The position numbers and the translations under genes are program-made. Positions 19,583 through 36,253 of a stretch of 64,000 nucleotides of DNA are shown in pieces (position 1 is the stretch's first letter; each line of letters opens with the position of its first letter). The DNA comes from Bacteroidales bacterium (lineage in GTDB: Bacteria > Bacteroidota > Bacteroidia > Bacteroidales > VadinHA17). Below the pieces are notes generated by a model that did not search any database, was not told the DNA's origin, and was given only the letters and a program-made list of their open reading frames with translations. The stretch is from NCBI GenBank assembly GCA_025454795.1, contig JALONT010000009.1:8827-72826 (forward strand), in the 5' to 3' direction.

Positions 19583-19591
19583 ATCTTATCT

Positions 19592-20785: not shown

Positions 20786-20793
20786 TCTTAAGC

Positions 20794-21231: not shown

Positions 21232-21243
21232 CTATCAGTTTTC

Positions 21244-21299
21244 AACTCTAAACTCTAAACTATCTTCAACCCACCTCTACGCCACTGCGCCACTGCGCC
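21244..21299. repeat. Two mini-arrays inside the hydrogenase operon (AACTCTA x2.7; CGCCACTG x2.5)
   Basis: Read directly. They fill the 70-nt spacer between the small-subunit stop (21302) and the NuoC-like start (21231). Confidence 0.85.
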
Positions 21300-21301
21300 T
21301 C

Positions 21302-21715
21302 TTATATAGTTCCAACCAGCTTCACGATCCCTGCAATTATGGCTTCCGGTTTCGGCGGGCACCCTGGAATATAGGCATTAACAGGGATTATTTTATCAAC
21401 TGGTCCTGCAAAAGTGTTTCCTTCAGCGAATATCCCGCCTGTACATCCGCAGGCTCCGATTGCTACCACAAGCAATGGCTTGGGTGCCTGATTATAGAGT
21501 TCGATCAATCTATCCTTATCTCTCCTGTTTATCGATCCGTTAACCAGAAGTACATCAGCATGCCTGATACTACCTACCAGAAGAATGCCAAAGCGCTCAA
21601 GATCATGTCTTGGTGTAAGACAATCAAGTATTTCTATATCACAATTATTGCAGGAGGCCCCCCCGAAGTGAAAGACCCAAAGTGACTTCTTGAAGCAATA
21701 ATTTTTAAATCCCAC
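21302..21715 (-). CDS. Group-4 [NiFe] hydrogenase small subunit (NuoB/MbhJ-like)
   Basis: [4Fe-4S] ligand pattern GGASCNNCDIE ... AIGACGCTGG ... PGCPP. The ORF-track ATG at 21781 would overlap the upstream gene by 55 nt. A GTG at 21715, 12 nt after the upstream stop, fits better, but the start is uncertain. Confidence 0.8.
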   Translation of the reverse strand: MGFKNYCFKKSLWVFHFGGASCNNCDIEILDCLTPRHDLERFGILLVGSIRHADVLLVNGSINRRDKDRLIELYNQAPKPLLVVAIGACGCTGGIFAEGNTFAGPVDKIIPVNAYIPGCPPKPEAIIAGIVKLVGTI

Positions 21716-21726
21716 GACTCTAATAT

Positions 21727-22659
21727 TTAGTAACCAAATGAAATCAGTACCAGGGCAATAACAGCCAGCAGGTTCATCCATAAGAAAAAGAAACTGACAG
21801 CCTGCTTTATCTTTACCCTTGGATTGGTGTTCCTTATCAAAGTTAATACAAGCACTACCGCAAGCACCTTCAATACTGCCCAGAGAATATGAATGCCATC
21901 AAGTCTGAAACCATTCATCAGCAGTGCAATAAGAAATGCCGGAAGGATGAATAACATAATGTACTTTGTAAGCTTTATCATTGCATATGCAGCTCCGGAG
22001 TATTCAATAAAAATACCTTCGGTTATTTCTGCTTCAGCCTCGGGCATATCGAAAGGGACAAGTGCCAGTTTAGCCTGAATGCAGAATATACCTACAATGA
22101 ATAAAATAACCCCTGAGATGCTTCCTATGAAAGGGGCACCTGCCTGTTGAGCCTGAATTATTGAGTACAGATCAATTTTTTGTTCGGTTTTCATAATAAT
22201 CCCTGCAATCACCAGCAGGAATGTCAGTTCATAGCTCATAATCAGCTTCATTTCTCTTGAGCTGCCTACAGCAGCAAGAGGATTTCCGGAAGCAAGAGCG
22301 CCGATAATATATGAAAAAGAGGGGATTGTAAGCAGGTAGAATATAACAAGAAGATCTCCTCTGAATCCGCTTGTGATATTTAATAAGGGAAGGAGAATAA
22401 ATACACCTGCCATAGTGGCTCCGAAAACAGCAAAAACAGGTGCAAGAAGGAATATCAAAGGTGAACCGTGCTTTGGCAGGATTGTCTCCTTGACCAGCAA
22501 CAATTTGAAGAAATCGTAAAATGGCTGCAACAGGGGAGGCCCCTGGCGAAACTGGACCCTGGCACTGATTTTCCTGTCGAACCAAGATAGAAATGCTCCT
22601 GTTACTGCAGTGAAGAGCAATCCGGGGAAGACAAGAAAATAAAACAGGTTAACTGCCAT
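21727..22659 (-). CDS. NuoH/MbhM/HycD-like membrane subunit
   Basis: 310 aa and polytopic, RKISARVQFRQGPP motif. Confidence 0.85.
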   Translation of the reverse strand: MAVNLFYFLVFPGLLFTAVTGAFLSWFDRKISARVQFRQGPPLLQPFYDFFKLLLVKETILPKHGSPLIFLLAPVFAVFGATMAGVFILLPLLNITSGFRGDLLVIFYLLTIPSFSYIIGALASGNPLAAVGSSREMKLIMSYELTFLLVIAGIIMKTEQKIDLYSIIQAQQAGAPFIGSISGVILFIVGIFCIQAKLALVPFDMPEAEAEITEGIFIEYSGAAYAMIKLTKYIMLFILPAFLIALLMNGFRLDGIHILWAVLKVLAVVLVLTLIRNTNPRVKIKQAVSFFFLWMNLLAVIALVLISFGY

Positions 22660-22670
22660 CTTTTTGTTAT

Positions 22671-23168
22671 TTATTTGGTTTCAGTAATATACAAATACTC
22701 TTTTACAAGTACTTTTTCATTTAGACTGTAAATATGTTTTTCGGGAGATTCATTCTCATCGGTCAGAGTCACAGTTCCTTCAGGGCAGGCATCGATGAAT
22801 TTCTTTACATCCTTTTCATCTTTCAGGTCACAGAAAAGATCTCTGTTCCTGTGGTGTCTGAAGAAATCTGTCATCATGGTTCCAAATGGGCAAATCGTAA
22901 CACACGATTTGCATGATACACAAAGATTGGTATGCCGTGTTATCAATCCGGCTTCATCCTTTTCAAGAGCATCAGCCGGACAAACGCTGATGCAGGGTGC
23001 ATCTTCGCATTTTCTGCAGGTGTAACTGAAGATTGCAAGCTCACGGATGCTCTTAAGCCCGTTTTTATTGGCTGACGGATAGAAATAGCCATCCGGTAAT
23101 GCAAATGCAGGATTGTCAACTAGTGCAGCCCGGATTTTAATCATATCTATCAGAATCTTTTGCTCCAT
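22671..23168 (-). CDS. HycB/CooF-like multi-[4Fe-4S] electron-transfer protein
   Basis: 165 aa with CRKCEDAPCISVCP and CVSCKSCVTICP, plus additional Cys (C...ACPEG). Confidence 0.75.
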   Translation of the reverse strand: MEQKILIDMIKIRAALVDNPAFALPDGYFYPSANKNGLKSIRELAIFSYTCRKCEDAPCISVCPADALEKDEAGLITRHTNLCVSCKSCVTICPFGTMMTDFFRHHRNRDLFCDLKDEKDVKKFIDACPEGTVTLTDENESPEKHIYSLNEKVLVKEYLYITETK

Positions 23169-23213
23169 TACTATATTATTATGCTGTATTTCAACCAGTG
23201 CATTACATTCATT

Positions 23214-23669
23214 TTAAATTGTCAGCTGGTTCATAAGCTGGAACCTTGTATCACTAAGCCTGTGCGAGATAGTCTGAGCAATTTTTGCCATTGTTTTAAA
23301 TCCGAACTTGCAGTTTTTTTCCAACTCAAGATTGAGTTGTTTTGCATCAATAGCCAGTACTTTTGTAGGACATGTTGCCATTACCCATGCTGTTGAGATA
23401 TGTGGTTTGAAGACTGCAGACCACGAAAAGAGCTGACCCTCCTCCAATGTACCGAGGTGGATTCTCTTTTCACTTGCCAGGCTTATTCCTAAGGATAAGC
23501 ATCCTTCAAATAATACAAAAACATCGGAAAGTTCATCATACTGTTCAAACAGCATTTCTTTTACTTTGAACTCCTTTATTGAACTGATACGGATAAATAT
23601 ATTCAATTCTTCGTCATCATAATTGTCAAAAAACCTGATTTTTTTTAACTCGCTAATTGTCACTTTCAT
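23214..23669 (-). CDS. Stand-alone cyclic-nucleotide-binding-like (CAP effector) domain protein, no DNA-binding domain
   Basis: 151 aa. The beta-roll pattern is typical of cNMP-binding domains (FFDNYDDEEL...FEQYDELSDVFVLFEG...GTLEEGQLFSWSAV...ATCPTKVLAIDAKQL). The protein ends after the C-helix and has no HTH. Confidence 0.65.
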   Translation of the reverse strand: MKVTISELKKIRFFDNYDDEELNIFIRISSIKEFKVKEMLFEQYDELSDVFVLFEGCLSLGISLASEKRIHLGTLEEGQLFSWSAVFKPHISTAWVMATCPTKVLAIDAKQLNLELEKNCKFGFKTMAKIAQTISHRLSDTRFQLMNQLTI

Positions 23670-23720
23670 GATCTTTATTATTAAGTAAAAAAATGAAATA
23701 ATTTTCTGATTTCTTGTTCA

Positions 23721-24578
23721 TTATTTCCATATTTCAGGATTATGTTTTATTTCATCATATGTAAACACAGGTCCATCTTTGCAGACAAAAAACTCACCCA
23801 TCATGCAATGACCGCATTTACCTAAACCGCACGACATGTTTTTTTCCATCGACAGGTATATCTGGTTATCCTGATACCCCAGCTCAAGAAGTCTGATAGT
23901 ACCGAACTTCATCATTATCGGCGGCCCGCAAACTATTGCAACAGAATTATTTATATTGATATCGATTTTATTCAGCAATATAGTTACAACTCCAACTGAA
24001 CCTTTCCAACCTTCATCTGCCCTGTCTACTGTCCGGTAAGCCTCAAATTTTTCAATGCTGTTTAATCTGTCAAACAAAGGTTTGTAGATGCAATCTACAG
24101 GTGTTTTGGATCCGTAGCAAAGGGTAACCTTCCTCAGTTTGTCCTTTATACCCTCAAGGGCATATAACAACGACCTGATAGGCGCAAGCCCGCAACCACC
24201 GCCAAGAATCAGAACTTCTTTATCATAAAATGTCTCAACAGGGTAACCTCTGCCGTATGGTCCTCTTATCCCCATGCAAACTCCGGGTTTCAGCGAATGC
24301 ATATATTCAGTTACATAACCTGTTTTCATGACAGTCACTTCAAGCTTTTCTGTAATAAAAGGGGAAGAAGACGGAGTAAAAGGAGCCTCACCGATACCAT
24401 CGACTGATAATTCAATAAACTGACCGGTTTTGAATGCGAACCTCTCTTCAGGTACCAGGACAAATGTCTTTATCAGAGGTGATTCTTCAATGACGTTTGT
24501 CAGCTTTGCTTTAAGAGGCCTATATATATTCATGTTATCCGGCATACTGTTACTTTGCAAGTTCCATGAAAATTTCAT
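23721..24578 (-). CDS. FAD/NAD(P)H-binding [2Fe-2S] oxidoreductase subunit (HydG / AsrB / PyrK-like)
   Basis: 285 aa. FNR-like fold motifs GQFIELSV, IRGPYG and LILGGGCGLAPI. C-terminal CGLGKCGHCMMGEFFVCKDGPVF [2Fe-2S] motif. Confidence 0.8.
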   Translation of the reverse strand: MKFSWNLQSNSMPDNMNIYRPLKAKLTNVIEESPLIKTFVLVPEERFAFKTGQFIELSVDGIGEAPFTPSSSPFITEKLEVTVMKTGYVTEYMHSLKPGVCMGIRGPYGRGYPVETFYDKEVLILGGGCGLAPIRSLLYALEGIKDKLRKVTLCYGSKTPVDCIYKPLFDRLNSIEKFEAYRTVDRADEGWKGSVGVVTILLNKIDININNSVAIVCGPPIMMKFGTIRLLELGYQDNQIYLSMEKNMSCGLGKCGHCMMGEFFVCKDGPVFTYDEIKHNPEIWK

Positions 24579-25542
24579 TCTTATTGATCTTACCTATGCA
24601 TCCTTCAATACATCTGCCGCACCCGGTACAGGCAAGTGATCTGAATTTCTCAGGCTTCCAGACATATTTGCACATATACCTGTTTCTGAAGCGATTGTGA
24701 AGTTCGTATAAGGCATCCTCGCCCCCGGCAACCCTTTCAAATCCGGGATACTGGCAGGTATCCATCTGTTTTACCTTTTCAAATCCGGGTTTGTCGATGA
24801 GAAGAAAACATGTGCATGTCGGACAGGCTGTTGTACATGCACCGCAGGACACACAATGGACAGAATACTTTTCCCAGATATCCACTCTCGCTTTTGTAAC
24901 AAGTTTACCGGTGGTTTCATAATCCGGTAAACCCTTATTGGCAGCTGACAGTAATGACTCAGTGACGTTATGTTCTTTATCAATTGCTGAAATTATTTCT
25001 TTATTATCAACCGGACTGGCTGAAGGGATATTGTTTATGAATTCTTTTCCCTTACCGGAAATAATCCTGAAAATCATATTTCCGTCAAGATTCATGACTG
25101 CGAGGTCGGCATTTATAGTTGAATAGGGCTTTATATTATAAGTCATGCAATGGCAATGCTCCTGAATGCCAAAACAATCGGCTGATATCAGAAGTGTGTT
25201 CTCTCGGCGTTCCCTGTAATGGATATCCGGGAACACATCATCGAGGTAGATTTCATCCAGCAGGGATAACCCTTCAATATCGCAATTTGGTGTTCCAATA
25301 ATAATTCTTGGCTTTTCAGCACTCCTTTCGGACGTAACATTCTCCTTAATGGGAAGAAAAAAACTTTTAAGTGAAGTGGCAGGCTTGGGTTTGTTGTAGG
25401 AAATTGAAGGTATATCAACAGGTTCGATCAATTCATAATCCTGTCCAAATTCATTAATAACACTTGCGAAAATGGTATGGGACGATAACAGACTCTCTAA
25501 AACCTTGTCCCACTCTTCTTTTTTTATGCTCTTATATTGCAT
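24550..25542 (-). CDS. Iron-sulfur subunit (HydB / AsrA-like), first gene of the hydrogenase operon
   Basis: 330 aa with CVSCGACTTACPTCTCF and CTGCGRCIEGC motifs, characteristic of sulfhydrogenase beta / AsrA proteins. It overlaps the next gene by 29 nt. Confidence 0.75.
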   Translation of the reverse strand: MQYKSIKKEEWDKVLESLLSSHTIFASVINEFGQDYELIEPVDIPSISYNKPKPATSLKSFFLPIKENVTSERSAEKPRIIIGTPNCDIEGLSLLDEIYLDDVFPDIHYRERRENTLLISADCFGIQEHCHCMTYNIKPYSTINADLAVMNLDGNMIFRIISGKGKEFINNIPSASPVDNKEIISAIDKEHNVTESLLSAANKGLPDYETTGKLVTKARVDIWEKYSVHCVSCGACTTACPTCTCFLLIDKPGFEKVKQMDTCQYPGFERVAGGEDALYELHNRFRNRYMCKYVWKPEKFRSLACTGCGRCIEGCIGKINKNEIFMELAK

Positions 25543-25725: not shown

Positions 25726-25743
25726 TTGTGAAACAAATCACAA
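25726..25743. promoter_or_regulatory. Candidate Rex operator overlapping the rex start codon
   Basis: TTGTGAAACAAATCACAA matches 13 of 14 specified positions of TTGTGAA-N4-TTCACAA. The GTG start of rex (25728) lies inside it. Confidence 0.6.
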
Positions 25744-26411
25744 AATACGTAATCAAAAACAGCCTGAAAAGGATTTTTCTTTACAGGGCATGCCTTGTAA
25801 GACTGAAGCTAATGGGGGTTGAAAAGGTCTTTTCTTATACTCTTGCAAACGAGACAGGTGTGACCTCCGAGCAGGTCAGGAAAGATTTCTCGGAGTTCAG
25901 TATTAAAGGGAACAAGCGCGGAGGATATGAAATAAATGATCTCCTGGGAAAAATGGAAGATATCTTTCATCGTAATAAAGATCATAATATTGTGCTGATC
26001 GGAATGGGAAACATGGGTCTTGCATTATCGAAATACAGCAAATTTGTCCAGAGGAATATGAATATTGTCGCTACCTTCGATATCGATCCTTTCAAACAGA
26101 AGGAGAGATCAGGTATTCCTGTGTACTCGATGAGCCGCCTGAAGGAAATAATTGAAAGATTCAAAGTAAAGGTTGCAATACTTGCCGTGCCTGAAATATC
26201 TGCTCAGGAGGTTGCTGATGAGCTTATGCGACATGGTATTAAGGGAATTGTGAATTTTGCTCCTGTGTTGCTTAAAGTCCCCCCGGATGTCGTCATAAAT
26301 AATGTGAATCTTTGCGATGAACTGGAAAGTGTTATCTATTATGTTCACAAACAACTGAAAATCGATGGATTTAAAAATCTTGAGCTATTATACAGGGATA
26401 TGAAATATTAA
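25728..26411 (+). CDS. rex: Redox-sensing transcriptional repressor Rex
   Basis: 227 aa. Winged-helix N-terminus (RIFLYRACLVRL...SEQVRKDFSEF) and a Rossmann domain (IVLIGMGNMGLAL). Confidence 0.85.
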   Translation: MKQITKYVIKNSLKRIFLYRACLVRLKLMGVEKVFSYTLANETGVTSEQVRKDFSEFSIKGNKRGGYEINDLLGKMEDIFHRNKDHNIVLIGMGNMGLALSKYSKFVQRNMNIVATFDIDPFKQKERSGIPVYSMSRLKEIIERFKVKVAILAVPEISAQEVADELMRHGIKGIVNFAPVLLKVPPDVVINNVNLCDELESVIYYVHKQLKIDGFKNLELLYRDMKY

Positions 26412-26431: not shown

Positions 26432-28642
26432 GTGGGATTCCGTCCATTTATCTGCAGACTTGCTTCTCAACATGGTTTGCTGGGAGAAGTTGATAACAGA
26501 ACCGACGGTGTGTATGTAATTGTCCAGGGCGACATTAAATCAGTTGACCGGTTCAGCAATGATATCCTTCAGTTTGCACCACCAGCATCACACATTAAAT
26601 CAATTGAGATAAATACAACACAATTCACGGGATTTGATTGTTTCAGAATAGCGGAAAGTAAAGCCGTTGATAATCAGATTACTGAAATAAGCCCGGATAT
26701 TGCAGTCTGTAAAGATTGTCTCAGCGACATGGAAAATGATCCTCAAAGAATTAATTATCCGTTCACTAACTGCACTAACTGCGGACCCAGGTTTTCCATA
26801 ATTAATGGTTTACCCTACGACAGACCTAACACTACCATGAAAAGCTTCAGGATGTGTGAAAGATGCAGCTCAGAGTACAATAATATTCTTGATCGCCGCT
26901 TTCATGCCCAACCTGTTGCCTGCAATTCATGCGGACCAGTTTATAGATATAAATACTCAGCAAAGAGTCTCATCAATTTGAAAGAGATCCTTGCAGAGGT
27001 CTCTTTGCAGATCATGTCAGGAAAAACAGTTGCTGTCAAGGGAATCGGAGGATATTTCCTGATGTGTGATGCACTGAATAATGATGCTGTAAAAGAACTG
27101 CGGAAAAGAAAACACCGTGATGCAAAACCCTTTGCCGTGATGTTCAGGAATATTTCTGCCGTGAAGAAATTCTGTTTTCTTAATAAAGAAGAGGAAGAAG
27201 AAATAACCTCATGGAGGAGGCCGATACTTGTACTCGGCCAGAAAGAAATTTTATCTCCGGATGTCAGCAATGGTTTAAATACAACAGGTGCAATGCTTCC
27301 ATATATGCCATTTCATTACCTGCTGTTCAGAAGCATAAAAACGCCGGCTGTTGTACTTACCAGCGGAAATATTTCTGATGATCCCATCATAATTGATGAT
27401 CACCTGGCTGAAAAAGAACTATTTAAGATAACTGGTTCACTACTAAGCTATAACAGGCAGATTGAAAACAGGACTGACGATTCCGTGATCAGGATCATAG
27501 ATCACAAGCCATCAGTTATCCGCCGGTCAAGAGGTTATGTTCCCCGTCCTGTTGATCTTAAATCTGATGTTGAAGGGATTCTGGCTCTGGGTGCAGAGCA
27601 GAAAAACAATTTTTGCATTGGTAAAGGAAACCAGGCTGTACTGAGTCAGTATATCGGGGACCTGAAAAATGCTGCGACCTTCGATTTCTTCAGTGAGACA
27701 ATTGAAAAATTCTCAAAGCTGTTCAGATTCAAACCTGCTTTCATTGCATGCGATCTTCATCCGGATTACAGGTCGACGCACTATGCTGAAGTTATTGGGG
27801 GAAACTTAAATATCCCCCTGATCAGAGTACAGCATCACCACGCCCATATTGCCTCCTGCCTGGCAGAATATGGACTCGATCGGGAGGTAATTGGTGTAAG
27901 TCTCGACGGAACCGGATTTGGATCTGACGGAAATATCTGGGGGGGTGAATTTTTAATTGCCGGTCAGGAAGGATTTAAGCGGTATTCCCATTTTGACTAT
28001 GTCCCGCTGCCCGGCGGAGATAAAGCAATAACAAGGCCCTGGAAAATGGCATTTTCATATCTTTATAAGTACTTTGGTGATAGCTTTGATTTCCGTTCTG
28101 TTCCATCATTCAGATCAATAGATGACCGGGAACTGATATTAGTTAAAGAGATGATTGAAAAAAAGATAAACTCTCCGCTTACTTCAGGTGCAGGTCGCCT
28201 TTTTGATGCAGTTTCATCAATCCTTGGTCTGTGTGCTTTCGAAACATTTGATTCAGAAGCACCTATGCGTCTTGAATCAGCGGTTGATTTTAAAACGAAA
28301 GAATTTTATACGTTCAGTGCCACGGAGAATCTGAATTTTTCAGAAACATTTAAGGGTATTCTTGGAGATTTAAAGAATAAGAGTGTTTCTTATATATCAA
28401 CAAAATTTCATAATACAGTAGCGCAGGCAATTCTTGAAATATCGGAACAGATAAGGGAAGAAACGAAGCTTGATAATGTTGTACTTTCAGGAGGTGTTTT
28501 CCAGAATAAATATCTTCTTGAAAAATCGATGGAGCTCCTGTCGGGCAACAGGTTCAAAGTTTATACAAATCACCTTGTCCCAGCCAATGATGGGGGCATA
28601 TCACTGGGACAGCTTTTAATCGCATCAAAAATCCGGGGATAA
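26432..28642 (+). CDS. hypF: [NiFe] hydrogenase maturation carbamoyltransferase HypF
   Basis: Contains an acylphosphatase-like N-terminus, two zinc-finger CxxC pairs (CKDC...CTNCGPR; CERC...CNSCGP), and YrdC-like and Kae1-like domains. The 5' end is uncertain: homology continues upstream to about 26387, where there is no canonical start (see findings). Confidence 0.9.
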   Translation: MGFRPFICRLASQHGLLGEVDNRTDGVYVIVQGDIKSVDRFSNDILQFAPPASHIKSIEINTTQFTGFDCFRIAESKAVDNQITEISPDIAVCKDCLSDMENDPQRINYPFTNCTNCGPRFSIINGLPYDRPNTTMKSFRMCERCSSEYNNILDRRFHAQPVACNSCGPVYRYKYSAKSLINLKEILAEVSLQIMSGKTVAVKGIGGYFLMCDALNNDAVKELRKRKHRDAKPFAVMFRNISAVKKFCFLNKEEEEEITSWRRPILVLGQKEILSPDVSNGLNTTGAMLPYMPFHYLLFRSIKTPAVVLTSGNISDDPIIIDDHLAEKELFKITGSLLSYNRQIENRTDDSVIRIIDHKPSVIRRSRGYVPRPVDLKSDVEGILALGAEQKNNFCIGKGNQAVLSQYIGDLKNAATFDFFSETIEKFSKLFRFKPAFIACDLHPDYRSTHYAEVIGGNLNIPLIRVQHHHAHIASCLAEYGLDREVIGVSLDGTGFGSDGNIWGGEFLIAGQEGFKRYSHFDYVPLPGGDKAITRPWKMAFSYLYKYFGDSFDFRSVPSFRSIDDRELILVKEMIEKKINSPLTSGAGRLFDAVSSILGLCAFETFDSEAPMRLESAVDFKTKEFYTFSATENLNFSETFKGILGDLKNKSVSYISTKFHNTVAQAILEISEQIREETKLDNVVLSGGVFQNKYLLEKSMELLSGNRFKVYTNHLVPANDGGISLGQLLIASKIRG

Positions 28643-28869
28643 TGTGTCTGAGTATACCAGCAGTGATTGTGTCAGTAAATGGCAACATGGCAGAAGTTTC
28701 TGCCGGGGGAACAATTTTTAAAGCAGGTCTCCATATGATAGAAAATGCAAAAGCAGGAGACTATATTCTTCTTCATGCAGGATTTGCTATCCAGAAGATC
28801 AGCGAGGAAGAAGCAGAGGAGACCCTTAAGCTACTTAAAGAAATGAAGGATTCACTGAATAGCAGATAA
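28642..28869 (+). CDS. hypC: Hydrogenase assembly chaperone HypC
   Basis: 75 aa beginning MCLSIPA, the conserved N-terminal Cys2 motif. Confidence 0.9.
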   Translation: MCLSIPAVIVSVNGNMAEVSAGGTIFKAGLHMIENAKAGDYILLHAGFAIQKISEEEAEETLKLLKEMKDSLNSR

Positions 28870-28872
28870 TCC

Positions 28873-29958
28873 ATGAAATTCATCGATGAATACAGGGATA
28901 AAGAATTGATTATGAAGCTGGCTGGTCAGATTGAAAAGGCAGCCGGGCATGAATACACGTTTATGGAAGTCTGCGGTGGTCACACCAGTGCTATCCATCG
29001 GTTTGGAATTCCTTCCCTGCTTCCCAAAAAAATAAAGCTGATCTCCGGGCCGGGATGCCCGGTTTGCGTCACAGGAAAGGATTTCATTGATAAATTAATC
29101 GCCTGCGCAGGGATGGATAATGTTGTTATTGCCACATTCGGAGATCTTATCAGAGTGCCCGGATCCTCATCGACCCTCGAAAGAGAGAGAGCCAAAGGAG
29201 CAGATATCAGAATCGTGATTTCCTGCCTGGAGGCTCTTGAAACAGCCAGGATGAATCCGGAAAAGAAAATCATTTTCCCGGGAATAGGCTTTGAAACAAC
29301 GGCTCCCGGAACTGCAGTCACAATTAAACAGTGTGAAAAGGATAAAACAGATAACTTCCGGGTCTTGAGTGCTCATAAGGTAATGCCTCCGGCAATGGAA
29401 GCTATTATAAAGGAAGGTGTTGATATTGACGGTTTTATCTGTCCGGGTCATGTGGCTGCAATTACCGGTTCTTCAGTGTTCAACTTTATTCCCGGGAAAT
29501 ATAAACTTGGTTGCGTCATTACCGGTTTTGAGCCGGTCGATATTCTTCATGCTGTTTTGATGCTGGTAAATCAGAAAAACCTTGATATGCCAAAAGTTGA
29601 AATTCAGTACAACAGGGCAGTGACTGAGAATGGAAATGAAATAGCGATCAGATATTTGTCAGAAGTATTTGAGCCATGTAACGCTTATTGGCGAGGACTT
29701 GGGGTTATACCGGGAAGCGGACTTAAACTGCGAAAGGAATATGAGAGATTTGATGCTGAGAAAATCTATTCTCCTGAGATTAAACCTCCTGAAGATGACG
29801 GATTATGTATTTGCGGAGAAATCCTGAGAGGGAAAAAAGTTCCCGGGGATTGTCCTCTTTTTGCCAGGTTGTGTACTCCGGATAATCCTGTCGGTGCCTG
29901 TATGGTATCAAATGAAGGAGCTTGTAATACATGGTTTAAATACAGAAAAGATGAATGA
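28873..29958 (+). CDS. hypD: Hydrogenase maturation protein HypD
   Basis: 361 aa. Motifs EVCGGHT, GPGCPVCV, GFETTAP and PGHV. Confidence 0.9.
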   Translation: MKFIDEYRDKELIMKLAGQIEKAAGHEYTFMEVCGGHTSAIHRFGIPSLLPKKIKLISGPGCPVCVTGKDFIDKLIACAGMDNVVIATFGDLIRVPGSSSTLERERAKGADIRIVISCLEALETARMNPEKKIIFPGIGFETTAPGTAVTIKQCEKDKTDNFRVLSAHKVMPPAMEAIIKEGVDIDGFICPGHVAAITGSSVFNFIPGKYKLGCVITGFEPVDILHAVLMLVNQKNLDMPKVEIQYNRAVTENGNEIAIRYLSEVFEPCNAYWRGLGVIPGSGLKLRKEYERFDAEKIYSPEIKPPEDDGLCICGEILRGKKVPGDCPLFARLCTPDNPVGACMVSNEGACNTWFKYRKDE

Positions 29959-30958
29959 TTTTGTCACCCTGAACCATGGAAGCGGAGGAAAGCAATCACA
30001 GGATCTTATAAAGAATGTGTTTGTAAAGAGATTTGGTATTATCGAGCCTCTTACAGATTCTGCTTTAGTTTGGGATTCAGGAAAGTATCTTGCATTTACA
30101 ACTGATGCTTATGTTGTGGATCCCCTTTACTTCCCCGGAGGCAATATTGGTAAACTTGCAGTATGCGGAACAGTAAACGACCTGGCAGTATCAGGAGCAA
30201 TTCCGATGTATCTGACAGCTTCATTTATAATTGAAGAGGGATTGCCAATGAAGGATCTTATTCAGATCACAGAATCGATGGCTGATGAAGCTTTAAATGC
30301 GAAGGTGAAAATTGTTACCGGCGACACAAAAGTAGTTGAAAGAGGAAAGTGCGACAAGCTTTTTATTACAACATCCGGAACGGGGTTCATGAACACGGGT
30401 CTGGAGCATATAAGTACAGGTGAACGCATAATAAAGGGTGATAAGCTTATCATAAACGGGCCACTCGGGAACCATGCAATTGCTGTTCTGGGAGCCCGGA
30501 ATAGACTGAGCTTCAGCACTCCTGTTGTTTCAGATTGCGCATCCCTTAATCATATAATTAAGAAAGTACTGGATCGCACTGAGGAAGTTCATTTTATGCG
30601 TGACCTTACGAGGGGTGGTCTTGCATCTGTTCTGAATGAACTTGCTTCAATGATTAAGCCGGGCATTACTGTTGATGAAGCTTCAATCCCTGTTGATGAT
30701 CCTGTAAAAGGTTTATGCGAAATGCTGGGTTTTGATCCTTTGTATCTTGCTAATGAAGGGAAATTCCTGATAGTAGTCGGAAAAGGGGAAGAGGACAAGG
30801 TACTGGAGATTCTGAGATCAGATCCTCTCGGAGAAAAATCGGAAATAATCGGAGATATTGTACAGGGGAAAAATAACAGAGTGATATTAAACACTATTGC
30901 CGGAGGGAGACGGATTCTTGATAATCTTTCAGGTATTCAGCTTCCCAGGATTTGTTAA
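29951..30958 (+). CDS. hypE: Hydrogenase maturation protein HypE
   Basis: AIR-synthase-like fold with the C-terminal ...LPRIC motif. I place the start at ATG 29951 (MNDFVTLNHGSGG), giving the usual ATGAATGA-type 8-nt overlap with hypD. The ORF-track start at 29861 is an extension. Confidence 0.9.
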   Translation: MNDFVTLNHGSGGKQSQDLIKNVFVKRFGIIEPLTDSALVWDSGKYLAFTTDAYVVDPLYFPGGNIGKLAVCGTVNDLAVSGAIPMYLTASFIIEEGLPMKDLIQITESMADEALNAKVKIVTGDTKVVERGKCDKLFITTSGTGFMNTGLEHISTGERIIKGDKLIINGPLGNHAIAVLGARNRLSFSTPVVSDCASLNHIIKKVLDRTEEVHFMRDLTRGGLASVLNELASMIKPGITVDEASIPVDDPVKGLCEMLGFDPLYLANEGKFLIVVGKGEEDKVLEILRSDPLGEKSEIIGDIVQGKNNRVILNTIAGGRRILDNLSGIQLPRIC

Positions 30959-30968
30959 CAGGTTTATT

Positions 30969-31310
30969 ATGCATGAGATAAGGATTGCGGAAGATCTTTC
31001 AGCTATTGTGCTTCAGGCAGCCCGGAAAGAGAATCTGATCAGGGTGACAAAAGTAAATATCAGTTTCGGACAACTGGTTCAGATAGTGCCGGATATCTTT
31101 GAATTTGCTTTCAGAGAAATAGTAAGGGATACAATTGCCTGTAAAGCCGTAGTCGTTATTGAGATCGTACCCGTGAAAATGGAATGCAATAGCTGTGGAA
31201 GCGATTTCAATCTAACTGAAAACTATTTTGCATGTAACGTCTGCGGATCGACAGATCTCAATATCATTCATGGAAAAGAATTGTTTATTAAAAGTATAGA
31301 AGGAGAGTAG
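30969..31310 (+). CDS. hypA: Hydrogenase nickel incorporation protein HypA
   Basis: 113 aa from the internal ATG, starting MHEIRIAE (MHE Ni-binding N-terminus). Zinc site CNSCG...CNVCG. Confidence 0.9.
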   Translation: MHEIRIAEDLSAIVLQAARKENLIRVTKVNISFGQLVQIVPDIFEFAFREIVRDTIACKAVVVIEIVPVKMECNSCGSDFNLTENYFACNVCGSTDLNIIHGKELFIKSIEGE

Positions 31311-31312
31311 AT

Positions 31313-31972
31313 ATGGAAATCAAAATCATGAAGAATATCCTGGACAGGAACCAGAATAAGGCAAACGAAGTAAGGACTCTGCTTGCTTCAAAAAAAGTAT
31401 TGATGGTGAACATAATAAGTTCACCCGGCGCCGGGAAAACTACATTGCTTGAACAGACACTCGGAGAAATAGGACAGAAGTTCAGGGCAGGGGTAATTGA
31501 GGGCGATATTACCACTGACAGGGATGCGCAGCGTCTGAAAAAATATAATATTCCGATTGTTGTAATTAATACAGAAGGAGGGTGCCATCTCGATTCGCAC
31601 AGTATCTCCAAAGTCCTGGATTCATTTAACCTTGATGATCTTGATGTCTTGTTTGTCGAAAATGTAGGTAACCTGATCTGCCCTTCACAGTTTGATCTTG
31701 GTGAGACTTTTAAGCTGGCAGTTGTCAGCACGACAGAAGGTGACGATAAACCAGGGAAATATCCTATGCTTTTCAGGGAAGCGAAAGCAGTTATTCTTAA
31801 TAAGATTGATCTGATTCCGTATACAAATTTTAGTTACGATAATTTTAAAACGGATCTGAGGAAGATAAATGCGCAGATACCTCTTTTCGAAATATCGTGT
31901 ACAAGGGGAGATGGTATGGAGGGGTGGTATGAGTGGATAAGCGGACAGATAAAAACCTTCAAGCTTCAATAA
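31313..31972 (+). CDS. hypB: Hydrogenase nickel incorporation GTPase HypB
   Basis: 219 aa. P-loop SSPGAGKTT, CH motif (EGGCHLD) and ENVGNLICP. Confidence 0.9.
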   Translation: MEIKIMKNILDRNQNKANEVRTLLASKKVLMVNIISSPGAGKTTLLEQTLGEIGQKFRAGVIEGDITTDRDAQRLKKYNIPIVVINTEGGCHLDSHSISKVLDSFNLDDLDVLFVENVGNLICPSQFDLGETFKLAVVSTTEGDDKPGKYPMLFREAKAVILNKIDLIPYTNFSYDNFKTDLRKINAQIPLFEISCTRGDGMEGWYEWISGQIKTFKLQ

Positions 31973-32311: not shown

Positions 32312-32554
32312 ATTGATCAGGAGAAAGGAGTTGTAGTTGACGGATCAGCCGGACTAAAGATCTATAATGCTTCCGATCCGACAAAAATTACAGATCACCT
32401 TATATCCTCATACCCGGCTATCAATGCTTATGATGTAATTCCAATCGGGAATGTCCTGGTCATGACAGGGGATGATGGATTATACCAGTATGATTATTCC
32501 AACATTCAAAATATTTCCCTTCTAAGCTCAATACTGGTAGTTGAGGAGGGCTAG
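32312..32554 (+). pseudogene. 5'-truncated, frameshifted remnant of an LVIVD/beta-propeller-type lipoprotein gene (C-terminal ~80 codons)
   Basis: Hand translation gives IDQEKGVVVDGSAGLKIYNASDPTKITDHLISSYPAINAYDVIPIGNVLVMTGDDGLYQYDYSNIQNISLLSSILVVEEG*. The frame is opened by a TGA at 32309, and the upstream sequence continues in another frame (...YTVPPVDNEFPTA*). Confidence 0.45.
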
Positions 32555-32662
32555 TTACTCGTTGCTGGGTACTGGGTGCTGGGTTGTCAATGATAAAACG
32601 AGCAACGAGCAACGAGCAACGAGCAACGAGCAACGAGCAACGAGCAACGAGCAACAAGTAAC
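32555..32662. repeat. Composite heptamer element: TGGGTRC x3, spacer, AACGAGC x8 (+1 degenerate), flanked by inverted GTTACTCGTTGC / GCAACAAGTAAC
   Basis: Read directly. The perfect AACGAGC units run 32597..32652. Confidence 0.95.
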
Positions 32663-32728: not shown

Positions 32729-32746
32729 TTGTTATTATTTTCACAG
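32729..32746. promoter_or_regulatory. Weak candidate Rex half-site/operator upstream of the [FeFe] hydrogenase operon
   Basis: TTGTTATTATTTTCACAG has a near-perfect right half (TTCACA) and a degenerate left half. It lies 63 nt upstream of the first gene. Confidence 0.3.
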
Positions 32747-32808: not shown

Positions 32809-33276
32809 ATGTACAACGTAGGAAATCTTGTTAAGGAATTATCCGAAAAGCATGGTCGTGAAAGAGAGAGCCTTATGCCTATACTCCAGGGTATTGTTGA
32901 AAAGCATAATTATCTTACAGATGAGGCCATGGTTGAAGTAGCCAGAGAACTTGACATCTCTGCTGCAGAAGTTTATGGAACTGCCTCATTTTATACCTTT
33001 CTGGATACAGATGTAAGAGGCAAGTATATAATAAGAATCTGCAAGACAATTACATGCTCCATGAAAGGGAAGGGTGAAATAATTCAAACTCTTGAAGACA
33101 TGCTTAAGATAAAGGTTGGTGAGACAACATCAGACAGGCAATTCAGTCTCATTGAAACAAACTGTATAGGCTGGTGTCATAAAGCTCCTGCAATACTTAT
33201 AAATGAAATACCATATACTGAGCTTACACCTGAAAAGACAGTGGAGATAATTAAAGGTTACATGCAAAAAAGATAA
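32809..33276 (+). CDS. hydC: [FeFe] hydrogenase subunit HydC (NuoE-like thioredoxin-fold [2Fe-2S] protein)
   Basis: 155 aa, Cys pattern CKTITC...CIGWC of the 24-kDa subunit family. Confidence 0.85.
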   Translation: MYNVGNLVKELSEKHGRERESLMPILQGIVEKHNYLTDEAMVEVARELDISAAEVYGTASFYTFLDTDVRGKYIIRICKTITCSMKGKGEIIQTLEDMLKIKVGETTSDRQFSLIETNCIGWCHKAPAILINEIPYTELTPEKTVEIIKGYMQKR

Positions 33277-33289
33277 TACCCTGAACGAA

Positions 33290-34450
33290 ATGGAAAAGAA
33301 AGGACTTACAAAAGTAGATCTCATATTCGAGACAATAGATCCAAAAGAGGTTCTGATCAAAGCTTTCAAAATGAGCAGCGGAGACATCATTAAAGAGATG
33401 CTTGATTCAGGACTTAAAGGCAGGGGGGGTGCCGGATTCCCGACAGGGTTAAAATGGAAATATGCCGCAGCTGAAAAAGAACCGGAGAAATATATTGTAT
33501 GTAACGCTGATGAAGGAGAACCCGGAACTTTTAAAGACCGGGAGATTCTTGACAGGGTAGCTTACAAGGTTTATGGCGGAATGGCTATTGCCGGTAAAGC
33601 TATAAGCGCAAAGCACGGAATTGTCTATTTGCGTGGTGAATACAGGTTTCTTCTGCCCCAGTTAATGAAAGAACTTGAAAAATTCCACAAGATGATAGGT
33701 GAGATAGGGTATGATTTTAAAATCAACTACTGTCTGGGAAGCGGAGCCTATATTTGCGGTGAGGAGAGTGCACTTTTTGAATCTGTCGAGGGTAGCCGCG
33801 GAGAACCGCGTAACAAACCACCATACCCGACAACCTCAGGTGTGTTCGGAAAACCCACATCGATAAATAACGTGGAGACCCTTGTTACAACAATGATGAT
33901 AATAAAGCATGGTGCTGCTAAATTCTATGAGCTGGGAACAAAAGATTCACGTGGCTCGAAGGTTTTCTCAGTATCAGGAGATACTCCAACACCGGGAATT
34001 TTTGAACTTGAGCTGGGAATGTCTGTACAGGAATTTGTAACCGAATTCGGAGATGGTGATACTAAAGCTGTCCAGGTTGGTGGTGCTTCAGGATTCTGTG
34101 TGCCAAGAAAAAAATTCCAGAATACCATCATTGGTTTTGAAGGCGTCCCGACGGGAGGATCAATGAAGCTTTTCAACAGTTCAAGATCGATGTATAATGT
34201 CCTGCACAATTATCTAGATTTCTTTGCCGAGGAGTCATGCGGACAATGTACACCATGCAGGGTTGGCTGCCAGCAGCTTCTCAAAGGTGTCGAAAAAGTC
34301 AAAAAAGGTGAAGTTAAGTCAACATATCTGAATGAGCTGATAAAACTTGCCGATACAATGAAAATAGCTTCCAAGTGCGGACTGGGACAATCAGTAGGCA
34401 ACGCCTTCAGAACTATTGTTGAGAACTTCAGGGAAGAGATCATTTACTAA
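33290..34450 (+). CDS. hydB: [FeFe] hydrogenase subunit HydB (NuoF-like FMN/NADH-binding subunit, short form)
   Basis: 386 aa. Motifs GRGGAGFPTGLKW, CNADEGEPGTFKDR and the N3 cluster motif ESCGQCTPCR...C. The protein ends right after this motif, with no C-terminal ferredoxin domains. Confidence 0.85.
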   Translation: MEKKGLTKVDLIFETIDPKEVLIKAFKMSSGDIIKEMLDSGLKGRGGAGFPTGLKWKYAAAEKEPEKYIVCNADEGEPGTFKDREILDRVAYKVYGGMAIAGKAISAKHGIVYLRGEYRFLLPQLMKELEKFHKMIGEIGYDFKINYCLGSGAYICGEESALFESVEGSRGEPRNKPPYPTTSGVFGKPTSINNVETLVTTMMIIKHGAAKFYELGTKDSRGSKVFSVSGDTPTPGIFELELGMSVQEFVTEFGDGDTKAVQVGGASGFCVPRKKFQNTIIGFEGVPTGGSMKLFNSSRSMYNVLHNYLDFFAEESCGQCTPCRVGCQQLLKGVEKVKKGEVKSTYLNELIKLADTMKIASKCGLGQSVGNAFRTIVENFREEIIY

Positions 34451-34471: not shown

Positions 34472-36253
34472 ATGATAAATCTGAATATTAATAACCAGAG
34501 AATTTCGGTACAACCGGGAACGACAGTTCTTGATGCGGCTAAAAAACTAAAAATCAATATCCCGACTCTGTGCAACCACCCCGATCTTTGTGTTGCTGGT
34601 AACTGCAGAGTATGCGTTGTTGAACAGACCGGAGCAAAAACGCTTATTGCAGCATGCTCAATGCCTGTTTCAGAAGGTATGGATATCCATACTAATACTT
34701 TAAAAGTGAGGAATGCCCGGAAGCATATCGTTGAGCTTCTGCTTTCAGAACACAGGTCCGATTGTACGAAATGCTATAAAAACCAGAAGTGTGAGCTTCA
34801 GGCACTGGCTAATGAGTTTGCCTTTGGGGATACTATCTTCCTTGATCTTGTTGAAGACCATCATTATTCAATCGACAGATCCTCCCCGTCATTCATTAAA
34901 GACGACAGCAAATGTATCCATTGCCAGCGTTGTGTGCGTACATGCACTCAATTGCAGTATATTTCAGCCATTGCAGTCGCAAATAAAGGTGCCCATCAAA
35001 AGATATCTTCATTTCACGACAGACCTATGAGCCATGTTGTATGCACAAACTGCGGTCAGTGTGTCAACCGTTGTCCGACGGGAGCCCTTGTCGAAAAAAC
35101 ATATATTGACCAGGTATGGGATGCTATTTATGATCCTGCAAAACATGTTGTTGTTCAGACAGCTCCTGCTGTAAGGGTTGCCCTGGGAGAAGACCTTGGC
35201 TATGATCCGGGCGAAAGAGTTACAGGAAAATTGGTAACGGCTCTTCGTCAGCTTGGATTTGATTCAATTCTCGACACCGATTTCGCTGCAGACCTTACAA
35301 TTATGGAAGAGGGAACAGAGCTGCTTACAAGGCTTAAGAAAGTACTGGTTGATGGTGATAAAACAACTTCGATCCCGATGTTCACCTCCTGCTCACCAGG
35401 ATGGGTCAAATTTATTGAACACAAATATCCGGAGTTTCTTCCGAACCTTTCGACCTGCAAATCACCGCAACAGATGTTTGGAGCTCTAGCCAAAACATAT
35501 TTTGCGCAGAAAATGAAACTGGATCCGTCAAAGATTGTATCAGTTTCCATAATGCCCTGTATAGCAAAGAAATATGAAGCAGACAGGCCGGAAATGAGAT
35601 CAAGCGGATTCAAGGATATTGACTATGTTCTGACAACACGCGAACTTGCCGTTATGATAAAGCAGGCAGGACTCGACTTCAGGAATCTTGAACCATCAAA
35701 TTATGATTCAGTTATGGGAGATTCAACCGGTGCCGGAGTTATCTTTGGAGCCACAGGTGGAGTTATGGAGGCAGCACTCAGAACGGCTTATGAGATTGTC
35801 ACAGGTAGAGAAGTTCCATTCAAGAACCTGAATATCACTCCTGTGAGAGGGATGGAAGGAGTCAAGGAGGCAACTGTGAAGATTGAAGGTTGCACTGCAG
35901 ACTGGAAGTTTCTGGAAGGCGCAGAGCTTAAAGTTGCTATCGCACATGGGCTTGTGAATGCAAATAAGATCATGAAGCTGGTACGGCAGGGAAAATCACC
36001 ATATCACTTTGTCGAGATCATGGCTTGTCCGGGAGGGTGTATAGGTGGCGGAGGCCAGCCAATACCTACAAGTATGGAGATAAGGAAGAACCGTATGAAA
36101 GCGATTTACTCTGAGGATGAACATATGGTACTCCGCAAGTCCCATGAGAATCCTGATGTAATAGCTATCTACAAAGATTTCCTTGGTAAGCCCAACAGTC
36201 ATGTTTCCCATGAACTGTTGCATACCCATTACACTGAACGGGATAACTACTAG
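34472..36253 (+). CDS. hydA: [FeFe] hydrogenase catalytic subunit HydA (M3-type domain architecture)
   Basis: 593 aa. It has an N-terminal [2Fe-2S] domain, a His-ligated cluster (EHRSDCTKC), and two ferredoxin motifs (CIHCQRCVRTC, CTNCGQCVNRCP). H-cluster motifs are MPCIAKKYE and EIMACPGGCIGGGGQP. The first H-cluster motif reads TSCSPGW. Confidence 0.9.
   Translation: MINLNINNQRISVQPGTTVLDAAKKLKINIPTLCNHPDLCVAGNCRVCVVEQTGAKTLIAACSMPVSEGMDIHTNTLKVRNARKHIVELLLSEHRSDCTKCYKNQKCELQALANEFAFGDTIFLDLVEDHHYSIDRSSPSFIKDDSKCIHCQRCVRTCTQLQYISAIAVANKGAHQKISSFHDRPMSHVVCTNCGQCVNRCPTGALVEKTYIDQVWDAIYDPAKHVVVQTAPAVRVALGEDLGYDPGERVTGKLVTALRQLGFDSILDTDFAADLTIMEEGTELLTRLKKVLVDGDKTTSIPMFTSCSPGWVKFIEHKYPEFLPNLSTCKSPQQMFGALAKTYFAQKMKLDPSKIVSVSIMPCIAKKYEADRPEMRSSGFKDIDYVLTTRELAVMIKQAGLDFRNLEPSNYDSVMGDSTGAGVIFGATGGVMEAALRTAYEIVTGREVPFKNLNITPVRGMEGVKEATVKIEGCTADWKFLEGAELKVAIAHGLVNANKIMKLVRQGKSPYHFVEIMACPGGCIGGGGQPIPTSMEIRKNRMKAIYSEDEHMVLRKSHENPDVIAIYKDFLGKPNSHVSHELLHTHYTERDNY

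Follow-up and report, generated by a model that had tools for sequence, protein, structure and literature searches.

A natural serine at a [4Fe-4S] ligand position of the H-cluster in a Bacteroidales group A [FeFe]-hydrogenase with probably non-bifurcating partner subunits

The [FeFe]-hydrogenase subunit HydA encoded in the 64-kb window (the whole stretch of Bacteroidales DNA analysed here, 64,000 nucleotides) carries a serine, Ser308, in place of the second cysteine of its first H-cluster motif, L1. This serine is a natural, conserved variant and not a defect, because it is conserved in many relatives and has been published for an active hydrogenase of solved structure; the variant is already documented in A. 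woodii, and the HydA described here is another member. We consider it likely that HydA is a competent group A enzyme in which Ser308 serves as the natural fourth protein ligand of the [4Fe-4S] subcluster of the H-cluster ([4Fe-4S]H), and that it takes part in non-bifurcating, NADH-driven H2 production.

The hydA ORF (Table 1) encodes a genuine [FeFe]-hydrogenase of group A, an assignment made because Pfam Fe_hyd_lg_C (PF02906, E=1.5e-98) and Fe_hyd_SSU (PF02256, E=3.9e-26) both match and because the NCBIfam model NF040763 scores above its cutoff (885.6 bits vs. 765; full-length match, residues 2-590). TIGR02512, the H-domain criterion for group A, is likewise exceeded (530 bits; cutoff 405.95), and Fer2_4, NADH-G_4Fe-4S_3, and Fer4 are found as further Pfam domains. 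NF040763, of which HydA is a member, bears the label "NADH-dependent [FeFe] hydrogenase, group A6", a label that alone cannot tell bifurcating from non-bifurcating enzymes. The initial annotation described motifs L2 and L3 as canonical, and we agree: MPCIAKKYE and EIMACPGGCIGGGGQP fit the patterns MPCxxKxxE and ExMxCxxGCxxG, ligand and bridging cysteines included, and C363, K366, C519, and C523 are invariant in the HydA alignment. The proton-transfer pathway is complete (C307, E280, S327, E283, and R287, corresponding to CpI C299, E279, S319, E282, and R286). An AF2 model of HydA built from a diverse alignment, which contains no cofactor, has a pLDDT of 90.6 overall and of about 95 over residues 301-310, and superposes on the structures of CpI, T. 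kivui HydA1, and A. woodii HydA1 with TM scores of 0.89-0.92.

Table 1. Positions in the window of the hydrogenase genes and of the HydA motifs and residues discussed in the text
Feature	Positions	Strand	Remarks
hydC, NuoE-like thioredoxin-like [2Fe-2S] subunit, 155 aa	32809..33276	+	Pfam 2Fe-2S_thioredx, E=6.1e-45
hydB, short NuoF-like FMN/NADH subunit, 386 aa	33290..34450	+	Pfam: only Complex1_51K and NADH_4Fe-4S
hydA, M3-type group A [FeFe]-hydrogenase catalytic subunit	34472..36253	+	ORF, 593 aa
Proton-pathway residues E280, E283, R287	35309..35332	+	CpI E279, E282, R286
H-cluster motif L1, variant TSCSPGW (T305..W311)	35384..35404	+	ACC TCC TGC TCA CCA GGA TGG
Cys307 (TGC), proton relay to adt amine	35390..35392	+	CpI C299, CrHydA1 C169; gap-free CpI alignment
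Ser308 (TCA), [4Fe-4S]H ligand position	35393..35395	+	CpI C300, CrHydA1 C170, T. kivui C299, A. woodii S301
Ser327, proton pathway	35450..35452	+	CpI S319
H-cluster motif L2, MPCIAKKYE	35552..35578	+	Cys363 = CpI C355; Lys366 = K358
H-cluster motif L3, EIMACPGGCIGGGGQP	36014..36061	+	Cys519 = C499; Cys523 = C503, bridging Cys

The L1 codons at 35384..35404 lie in frame with the 593-aa ORF and confirm the TSCSPGW reading from which this analysis started. HydA thus departs from the strict pattern TSCCPxW, which asks for both cysteines, at the second cysteine only. Given that the active A. woodii HydA1 deviates in the identical way, the strict pattern is needless for membership of group A or for activity; HydA follows the A. 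woodii pattern, with serine at the second L1 cysteine and the other three ligand cysteines kept. That this serine falls at the [4Fe-4S]H ligand position had been argued from simple register, and it holds up: alignments with CpI, T. kivui HydA1, and A. woodii HydA1 contain no gap within or after L1 (the nearest, an insertion of 7 residues, lies about 10 residues before it), and the structural superposition agrees. The roles given in the initial annotation, proton relay for the first cysteine and cluster ligation for the second (C170 in CrHydA1, C300 in CpI), are those reported by Kertess et al. 2017 (PMC5855289) and Katsyv et al. 2023 (PMC10021017). Cys307, the relay residue, is invariant in both HydA alignments that we built.

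A single-base error at this codon had been judged unlikely, and every comparison sustains that judgement. TSCSP[GA]W is present in 120/120 of the nearest database proteins (88-96% identity to HydA) and in 80/80 related species-representative genomes (the best 80 of 299 matching species-level genomes), where the serine is encoded by all four TCN codons (TCA in 36, TCT in 24, TCG in 12, and TCC in 8); the codon pattern itself is one of synonymous drift over a conserved serine. A sequencing or assembly error at 35393..35395 that hides a true TGY codon would have nothing in its favour except the departure from the textbook motif, would need two base changes, and would have to coexist with serine in all of these proteins and genomes; we give it practically no weight, and on this sequence evidence it is refuted in practice. 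The comparisons demonstrate that Ser308 is a true residue of the protein, that it occupies the ligand position and is kept by purifying selection, and that it occurs widely.

The variant extends well beyond close relatives. Group A cluster representatives at E<=1e-30 number roughly 2,000 or more; the 150 nearest clusters at 50% identity include 26 (~17%) with a Cys-Ser L1 and 106 with a Cys-Cys L1. The Cys-Ser clusters are dispersed through the tree, and about 15 Cys/Ser changes (gains or reversions) are needed on a rough NJ tree built from 116 clusters. The survey of TSCSP frequency called for in the initial annotation, run here on the nearest clusters, therefore left the position of the serine standing and removed its implied peculiarity: the motif is common, and the active, solved A. 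woodii HydABC carries it, which in substance answers the proviso that the claim would fall if TSCSP proved common in characterised active hydrogenases. The searchable, open-access literature yielded neither a systematic survey nor biophysical work on the natural serine variant; searches there for TSCSP or a "serine ligand" returned as relevant only Katsyv et al. 2023 and Di Rienzi et al. 2013 (PMC3787301). The exchange at the fourth [4Fe-4S]H ligand might be a recurrent, selected tuning knob, as opposed to neutral drift, that shifts the potential of the cubane and biases the enzyme towards H2 evolution, and so became fixed in whole lineages such as these Bacteroidales with a ferredoxin-independent, NADH-driven enzyme; we regard this as rather unlikely.

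We also considered whether TSCSP is tied to one type of partner subunit, and rejected this, since Cys-Ser HydAs occur in varied contexts: beside the short NuoF described here, beside the bifurcating HydB of A. woodii, beside a 1043-aa NuoF-GltD fusion (loci L082/L083), and beside a formate dehydrogenase (L081). A further Cys-Ser HydA, 1192 aa long, comes from a eukaryotic (MMETSP) transcriptome (P0134); among the other very long clusters (about 1100-1200 aa), most are Cys-Cys.

If Ser308 did not bind iron, the fourth thiolate would have to come from elsewhere: from Cys329 (in "STCKSPQ"), from an extra cysteine next to the residue equivalent to C499, or from Cys307. Such a shifted ligand set, one of the outcomes envisaged at the outset, draws on two observations: the position of CpI A321 is cysteine in both HydA (Cys329) and A. 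woodii HydA1 but alanine in CpI and T. kivui, and three Cys-Ser clusters read "MCC" in L3. Neither carries over to the family. Cysteine at the A321 position is about equally common with either motif (55/106 Cys-Cys vs. 17/26 Cys-Ser clusters), and nine Cys-Ser clusters have alanine, threonine, or valine there, so a swap to Cys329 was rejected; "MCC" is found in just 3/18 Cys-Ser clusters and is absent from HydA, so a compensating L3 cysteine was rejected as well. A column association scan gave weak, phylogeny-confounded enrichments (e.g. glycine after the proline in 15/18 Cys-Ser vs. 35/98 Cys-Cys clusters), and no column other than 308 separates the two groups strongly (best p about 5e-5, uncorrected for phylogeny). 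Recruitment of Cys307 would cost the proton relay, yet the A. woodii enzyme is fully active with Ser301 modelled at the ligand position. Since no other cysteine covaries with the serine to compensate for it, the idea of a shifted ligand set lacks support, and we consider it very unlikely.

Sensory [FeFe]-hydrogenases of groups C and D carry changes in the L1 motif, and a serine in L1 could in principle mark a low-activity or regulatory paralogue, as the initial annotation suggested. With the engineered C170S exchange, CrHydA1 has a lower bulk activity (Kertess et al. 2017, PMC5855289), and in Melainabacteria ACD20 TSCSPGW occurs together with a missing L3 cysteine (Di Rienzi et al. 2013, PMC3787301). 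In HydA, however, both L2 and L3 are intact, as are the E280/E283/R287/S327 path and Cys307 for the relay; Pfam reports neither a PAS nor another signalling domain, so that the features of sensory HydS are lacking; hydA shares an operon with genes for FMN/NADH subunits; the serine is conserved in the best 80 of 299 matching species-level genomes, and HydA is apparently the sole [FeFe] catalytic subunit at the locus. Moreover, the bidirectional A. woodii hydrogenase is active with the identical L1 motif (Katsyv et al. 2023). A sensory or crippled enzyme is thus highly improbable.

The partner subunits distinguish this complex from the group A3 enzyme with HydBC partners that was initially assumed, an assignment that now looks doubtful. 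HydB lacks the N-terminal [2Fe-2S] domain and the C-terminal 2x[4Fe-4S] domains of A. woodii, T. kivui, and T. maritima HydB: its residues 26-383 align to residues 148-523 of the 599-aa A. woodii protein and to residues 170-553 of the 626-aa T. maritima protein. The short form is typical of the neighbourhood, with HydB of about 386 aa in 57/73 related loci in which HydB was found. HydC matches NuoE-family NCBIfam models below their cutoffs.

According to Losey et al. 2020 (PMC7311640), bifurcating enzymes have A/E and M near the NADH site, Phe near the FMN, and GGPSG in the SLBB region, and non-bifurcating enzymes have T/S and K/S/A, Tyr, no GGPSG, and fewer Fe-S domains in the beta subunit. 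HydB reads PGTFKDR (T and K), GSGAYICGEE (Y), and GGASG; it thus has all signatures of the non-bifurcating S. wolfei Hyd1ABC type and neither the extra domains nor the residues of the bifurcating type. In the HydB alignment the bifurcating NfnB (9N5U) reads PGAFMDR, GAFVCGEE, and GGPSG. The best PDB match of HydB, the NAD-reducing HoxF (5XF9), shares the T/K and Y positions and, reading SGPSG, is like HydB without the bifurcating GGPSG.

Because HydB is a short NuoF-like core with all published non-bifurcating signatures, bifurcation of the A3 type is improbable for the HydABC complex, by sequence criteria that come from one paper (Losey et al. 2020). A canonical electron-bifurcating A3 HydABC, which makes H2 from NADH and reduced ferredoxin and has inherited the serine from an A. 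woodii-like ancestor, would fit the three-gene order hydC-hydB-hydA and the finding that, in structure, HydA is most like the bifurcating enzymes of T. kivui and A. woodii. Against it stand the missing Fe-S domains, for which a 386-aa HydB between the end of hydC at 33276 and the start of hydA at 34472 leaves no room, and the residues T/K for A/M, Y for F, and GGASG for GGPSG; we consider it unlikely.

Our preferred reading is therefore a serine-ligated, ferredoxin-independent enzyme. In this enzyme Ser308 would replace cysteine as the fourth protein ligand, presumably through its side-chain oxygen. The remaining ligands (C363, C519, and C523, the bridging one) are intact, as are Cys307 for the proton relay and the Glu/Ser/Arg path; the arrangement as a whole would equal that published for the active A. 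woodii HydABC. Homology suggests that the serine oxygen ligates iron and that the enzyme is active, and the CrHydA1 C170S data indicate that the oxygen ligand may shift it mildly towards H2 evolution. HydA would work with the NuoE-like HydC and the minimal NuoF-like HydB, and given these partners it most likely makes H2 directly at the expense of NADH, with no part for ferredoxin, in the non-bifurcating manner of the S. wolfei Hyd1ABC type.

Within the 64-kb window we found no hydE, hydF, or hydG maturase genes and no RNA families (Rfam). A scan for Rex boxes gave 12 matches in the window (6.4 +/- 2.6 expected); a site upstream of hydC has three mismatches and is weak evidence.

These results bear on how hydrogenases are annotated. 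Strict matching to TSCCPxW would wrongly flag many functional hydrogenases as defective or "sensory": about 17% of the nearest clusters, 120/120 of the nearest proteins, and the best 80 of 299 genomes. The short-NuoF, bifurcating-HydB, NuoF-GltD-fusion, FDH-linked, and eukaryotic-fusion contexts make up a natural panel of putatively Ser-ligated H-clusters, which, set against Cys-ligated sisters, could teach what the fourth ligand does to potential, maturation, and catalytic bias. For this genome, the non-bifurcating look of the HydBC partners is a more consequential point than the serine: it would imply that NADH directly supplies the electrons for H2, a reaction that can proceed only where the partial pressure of H2 is low, as in syntrophic or fermentative niches.

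Among known systems, A. woodii HydA1 (PDB 7Q4V, 7Q4W, and 8A5E; E=3.6e-175, 46% identity in the Foldseek alignment, TM 0.92) shares with HydA the TSCSPGW motif, with its Ser301 at the position of Ser308, and the M3 domain architecture. Katsyv et al. 2023 (PMC10021017) reported that Ser301 replaces a cysteine ligand of [4Fe-4S]H and that the A. woodii HydABC is active with normal H-cluster FTIR bands, the serine being without effect on either; the Ser-O-Fe coordination itself comes from a cryo-EM model whose resolution is moderate. The two systems differ in host (Firmicutes for A. woodii, Bacteroidales here) and in HydB: the A. woodii enzyme bifurcates and has a 599-aa HydB with extra Fe-S domains, whereas HydB here is a 386-aa NuoF core. 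The HydA insertion KVLVDGD (residues 290-296, upstream of L1) is missing from the solved structures.

T. kivui HydA1 (PDB 8A6T) is the best overall match of HydA in sequence and structure (E=4.9e-182, 50% identity by Foldseek, TM 0.91); C. pasteurianum CpI (e.g. 4XDC and 3C8Y) matches with E about 1e-137 and TM 0.89. Both share L2, L3, and the proton pathway with HydA, but have the canonical TSCCP with a cysteine ligand (Cys299 in T. kivui, C300 in CpI). For the partners, the closest precedents are S. wolfei Hyd1ABC and S. aciditrophicus HydAB (Losey et al. 2020, PMC7311640), which likewise combine HydA with NuoF-like and NuoE-like subunits and have the same HydB signatures.

C. reinhardtii HydA1 C170S carries the identical Cys-to-Ser exchange at the identical ligand position, as an artificial mutant of a scaffold that evolved with cysteine, whereas the serine here is native and conserved. 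The mutant has wild-type-like [4Fe-4S] occupancy, accepts [2Fe], shows unchanged FTIR bands, and is the most active ligand variant, with a bias to H2 evolution; it matures slowly and incompletely, to about 10% [2Fe] occupancy, with lower bulk activity (Kertess et al. 2017, PMC5855289), and serine is therefore not neutral in every scaffold. Finally, two Melainabacteria proteins, ACD20_9246_G0007 and G0010, described as trimeric "confurcating" [FeFe]-hydrogenases, have TSCSPGW for TSCCPAW (Di Rienzi et al. 2013, PMC3787301); their motif-3 cysteine is changed to isoleucine and they may be non-catalytic, whereas HydA keeps both L3 cysteines.

The HydA of the window belongs to the M3-type group A [FeFe]-hydrogenases. 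Pfam finds in it an N-terminal 2Fe-2S, a His-ligated 4Fe-4S region, a 2x[4Fe-4S] ferredoxin domain, Fe_hyd_lg_C at E=1.5e-98 and Fe_hyd_SSU, and the NCBIfam model NF040763 ("NADH-dependent [FeFe] hydrogenase, group A6") scores it at 885.6 bits, above the cutoff of 765. The codons ACC TCC TGC TCA CCA GGA TGG, in the frame of the HydA ORF, translate to T305-S306-C307-S308-P309-G310-W311; the initial annotation, which had read the first H-cluster motif (L1) as TSCSPGW with the other two motifs canonical, was right in sequence, frame and translation. The proton-pathway residues E280, E283, R287 and S327 are all present, as are the other ligands, C363, C519 and C523.

Features of the hydrogenase region (window coordinates)
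Feature	Position	Strand	Description
[NiFe]-type genes	17723..25542	-	directly upstream of the [FeFe] operon
[NiFe]-type genes	26432..31972	+	directly upstream of the [FeFe] operon
Putative Rex box TTGTGAAACAAATCACAA	25726..25743		near-consensus, 1 mismatch; overlaps the rex gene start
rex	25728..26411	+	Rex redox-sensing repressor; NF003996, 213.9 bits
Open reading stretch	32340..32555	+	in the hypB-hydC spacer
(AACGAGC) x 8.4	32597..32655		perfect heptanucleotide microsatellite; TRF score 118
Putative Rex box	32729..32746		weak, 3 mismatches; 63 bp upstream of hydC
hydC	32809..33276		NuoE-like
hydB	33290..34450		386 aa; FMN/NADH domain and N3-type 4Fe-4S region only (Pfam)
hydA	34472..36253	+	593 aa
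KVLVDGD insertion	35339..35359		HydA residues 290-296
L1	35384..35404		TSCSPGW
L2 MPCIAKKYE	35552..35578		canonical
H-cluster motif EIMACPGGCIGGGGQP	36014..36061		canonical

The serine had been assigned to the [4Fe-4S] ligand position by simple register, and this assignment holds in both alignment and structure. HMMER alignments of HydA to solved structures have zero gaps within or past L1, the single nearby gap being a 7-residue insertion ~10 residues upstream, and they pair Ser308 with C300 of CpI, C299 of T. kivui and S301 of A. woodii, and Cys307 with the proton-relay residue C299 of CpI. Around L1, the sequences read ...IPMFTSCSPGWVKFIE... for the query, ...FPMFTSCCPSWILAVE... for T. kivui HydA1 (8A6T), ...FPMFTSCCPGWVRQAE... 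for C. pasteurianum CpI and ...LPMITSCSPGWIKFIE... for A. woodii HydA1 (7Q4V/7Q4W/8A5E). An AF2 model from a diverse alignment (mean pLDDT 90.6; ~95 across residues 301-310) gives, on superposition, TM 0.91 and rmsd 2.3 Å to T. kivui HydA1, TM 0.92 and rmsd 2.2 Å to A. woodii HydA1, and TM ~0.89 to CpI. The KVLVDGD insertion just upstream of L1 is missing from these three enzymes, is almost invariant across the Bacteroidales clade, and belongs to the loop that follows the helix bearing the proton-pathway residues.

The 120 database proteins closest to HydA, most of them from Bacteroidales MAGs and 88-96% identical to it, all read TSCSP[GA]W. When one genome per GTDB species was scanned, 299 stretches were found to encode a relative; the best 80 of the 299, which were read, all carry the same motif at 84-93% identity and belong to Bacteroidales or "Rikenellaceae" MAGs recovered from sediments, fens and digesters. 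At the Ser308 position these 80 use TCA (36), TCT (24), TCG (12) and TCC (8). The amino acid has stayed fixed while its synonymous codons turned over, which shows purifying selection; a read error, of which the single-base kind was already thought unlikely in the initial annotation, is excluded. An 88%-identical copy of the Bacteroidales-type hydA in a "Methanosarcinaceae archaeon" MAG (contig L044; JAFGCK010000098.1, 4003 bp) most likely reflects binning contamination, not an archaeal [FeFe]-hydrogenase.

A shifted ligand set, also raised initially, is not supported by the alignments. The candidate thiolate Cys329 (in STCKSPQ), at the position of CpI A321 and common to the query and A. woodii, does not covary with the serine: a cysteine stands there in 55 of 106 Cys-Cys clusters and 17 of 26 Cys-Ser clusters, and in nine Cys-Ser clusters the residue is Ala, Thr or Val. 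Just 3 of 18 Cys-Ser clusters have an extra cysteine adjoining C499 ("MCC"), which the query lacks, and a scan of alignment columns found none besides the Ser308 position that strongly separates Cys-Ser from Cys-Cys.

Nor is TSCSP rare: among the best 150 of >2,000 strong matches (50%-identity cluster representatives), a sample for that reason skewed to the nearest relatives, 26 are Cys-Ser and ~106 Cys-Cys. A rough NJ tree of H-domains disperses the Cys-Ser leaves and implies at least ~15 state changes across its 116 leaves; crude as it is, the tree suggests that Cys and Ser switched repeatedly at the ligand position. The variant is far commoner and more scattered than passing remarks in the literature imply. 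The top-scoring cluster representative, P0121 (4122 aa; seven tandem H-domains, with six of its MPCTVK motifs spaced 444 residues), represents an assembly artefact or else an unusual tandem-repeat hydrogenase polyprotein.

The variant is not restricted to one partner type: a Cys-Ser HydA is accompanied by a short NuoF-like HydB in the window and by a full bifurcating HydB in A. woodii. The TSCSP-type P0123 (53% identical) has a 1043-aa HydB partner (L082 1831..4962; L083 1135..4266) in which a NuoF core is fused to a GltD/pyridine-nucleotide-disulfide-oxidoreductase-like module, with a Rex-like gene ahead of hydC at L082. In Natronincola peptidivorans (L081 2200..9148), the TSCSP-type P0128 directly follows a split molybdopterin formate dehydrogenase (348 + 525 aa) and precedes a 653-aa HydS-like chemoreceptor in which an [FeFe]-hydrogenase H-domain is joined to an MCP signalling domain. 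A further Cys-Ser HydA, P0134, is 1192 aa long and comes from a eukaryotic transcriptome (MMETSP).

The HydB of the window aligns only to residues 148-523 of A. woodii HydB (599 aa) and 170-553 of T. maritima HydB (626 aa), and so has neither their N-terminal [2Fe-2S] domain nor their C-terminal 2x[4Fe-4S] domain; flanking genes leave no space for extra Fe-S domains. Of the 73 related loci in which HydB is identifiable, 57 have one of ~386 aa. The bifurcating pattern of Losey et al. 2020 (PMC7311640) comprises A/E and M, Phe, and GGPSG, and bifurcating NfnB in the same PDB alignments reads PGAFMDR, GAFVCGEE and GGPSG, whereas the window's HydB reads PGTFKDR (T, K), GSGAYICGEE (Tyr) and GGASG; all of these residues favour assigning it to the non-bifurcating class. 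NAD-reducing HoxF (5XF9), its best PDB match, shares the T/K and Tyr and likewise lacks GGPSG (SGPSG in HoxF). From the sequence, we infer that the complex is a ferredoxin-independent NADH:H+ oxidoreductase resembling S. wolfei Hyd1ABC.

The operon closes a gene string that begins with rex and continues hypF-hypD-hypE-hypA-hypB-hydCBA. Two putative Rex boxes are tabulated; overall, 12 matches were observed versus 6.4 +/- 2.6 by chance, not clearly above chance. The [NiFe]-type genes comprise a membrane-bound module, either complex-I-like or a group-4-like [NiFe]-hydrogenase (NuoL/M-like, NuoD-like large subunit, NuoH-like, Fe-S protein), after which come sulfhydrogenase/AsrAB-like beta and gamma subunits and the full [NiFe] maturation set hypF, hypD, hypE, hypA and hypB; no [FeFe] maturase gene (hydE/F/G) was found within the 64-kb window. 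In the 837-bp hypB-hydC spacer, the open reading stretch (end ...GDDGLYQYDYSNIQNISLLSSILVVEEG and stop; start unconvincing) resembles what is left of a repeat protein's C-terminus and is possibly a pseudogene fragment. The microsatellite, ~150 bp ahead of the start codon of hydC, was found in 0 of 80 related loci (six have other 4-copy heptamer repeats elsewhere), and may be either a slipped-strand variable element or simply a strain-specific repeat.

Ser308 stands at the ligand position amid otherwise intact catalytic machinery, and the residue is selected. The sensory or impaired enzyme once envisaged finds no evidence in TSCSPGW; the catalytic residues are intact, and A. woodii HydA1, the query's second-best PDB match, has the identical L1. 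TSCSPGW can hardly be called an anomaly, since it occurs in that characterised, active enzyme, whose authors describe the serine as taking the place of a ligand cysteine and leaving FTIR signature and activity unaffected (Katsyv et al. 2023, PMC10021017). A 2013 paper on Melainabacteria (PMC3787301) had already reported the motif in hydrogenases, and an engineered equivalent exists in CrHydA1 C170S, which retains WT-like [4Fe-4S] occupancy and unchanged FTIR bands, takes up the [2Fe] subsite slowly (~10%), and combines the top activity among ligand variants with a bias to H2 evolution (Kertess et al. 2017, PMC5855289). No systematic study of the variant's functional consequence was found in the searchable literature. 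By homology to A. woodii, the Ser308 oxygen would complete [4Fe-4S]H coordination, the H-cluster would assemble normally and the enzyme would turn over; by analogy with C170S, a modest bias to H2 evolution is possible, and would suit an enzyme driving NADH electrons uphill at low H2 pressure. The Cys-Ser L1 of the window's HydA is real but ordinary, a Bacteroidales addition to an already described natural L1 variant.
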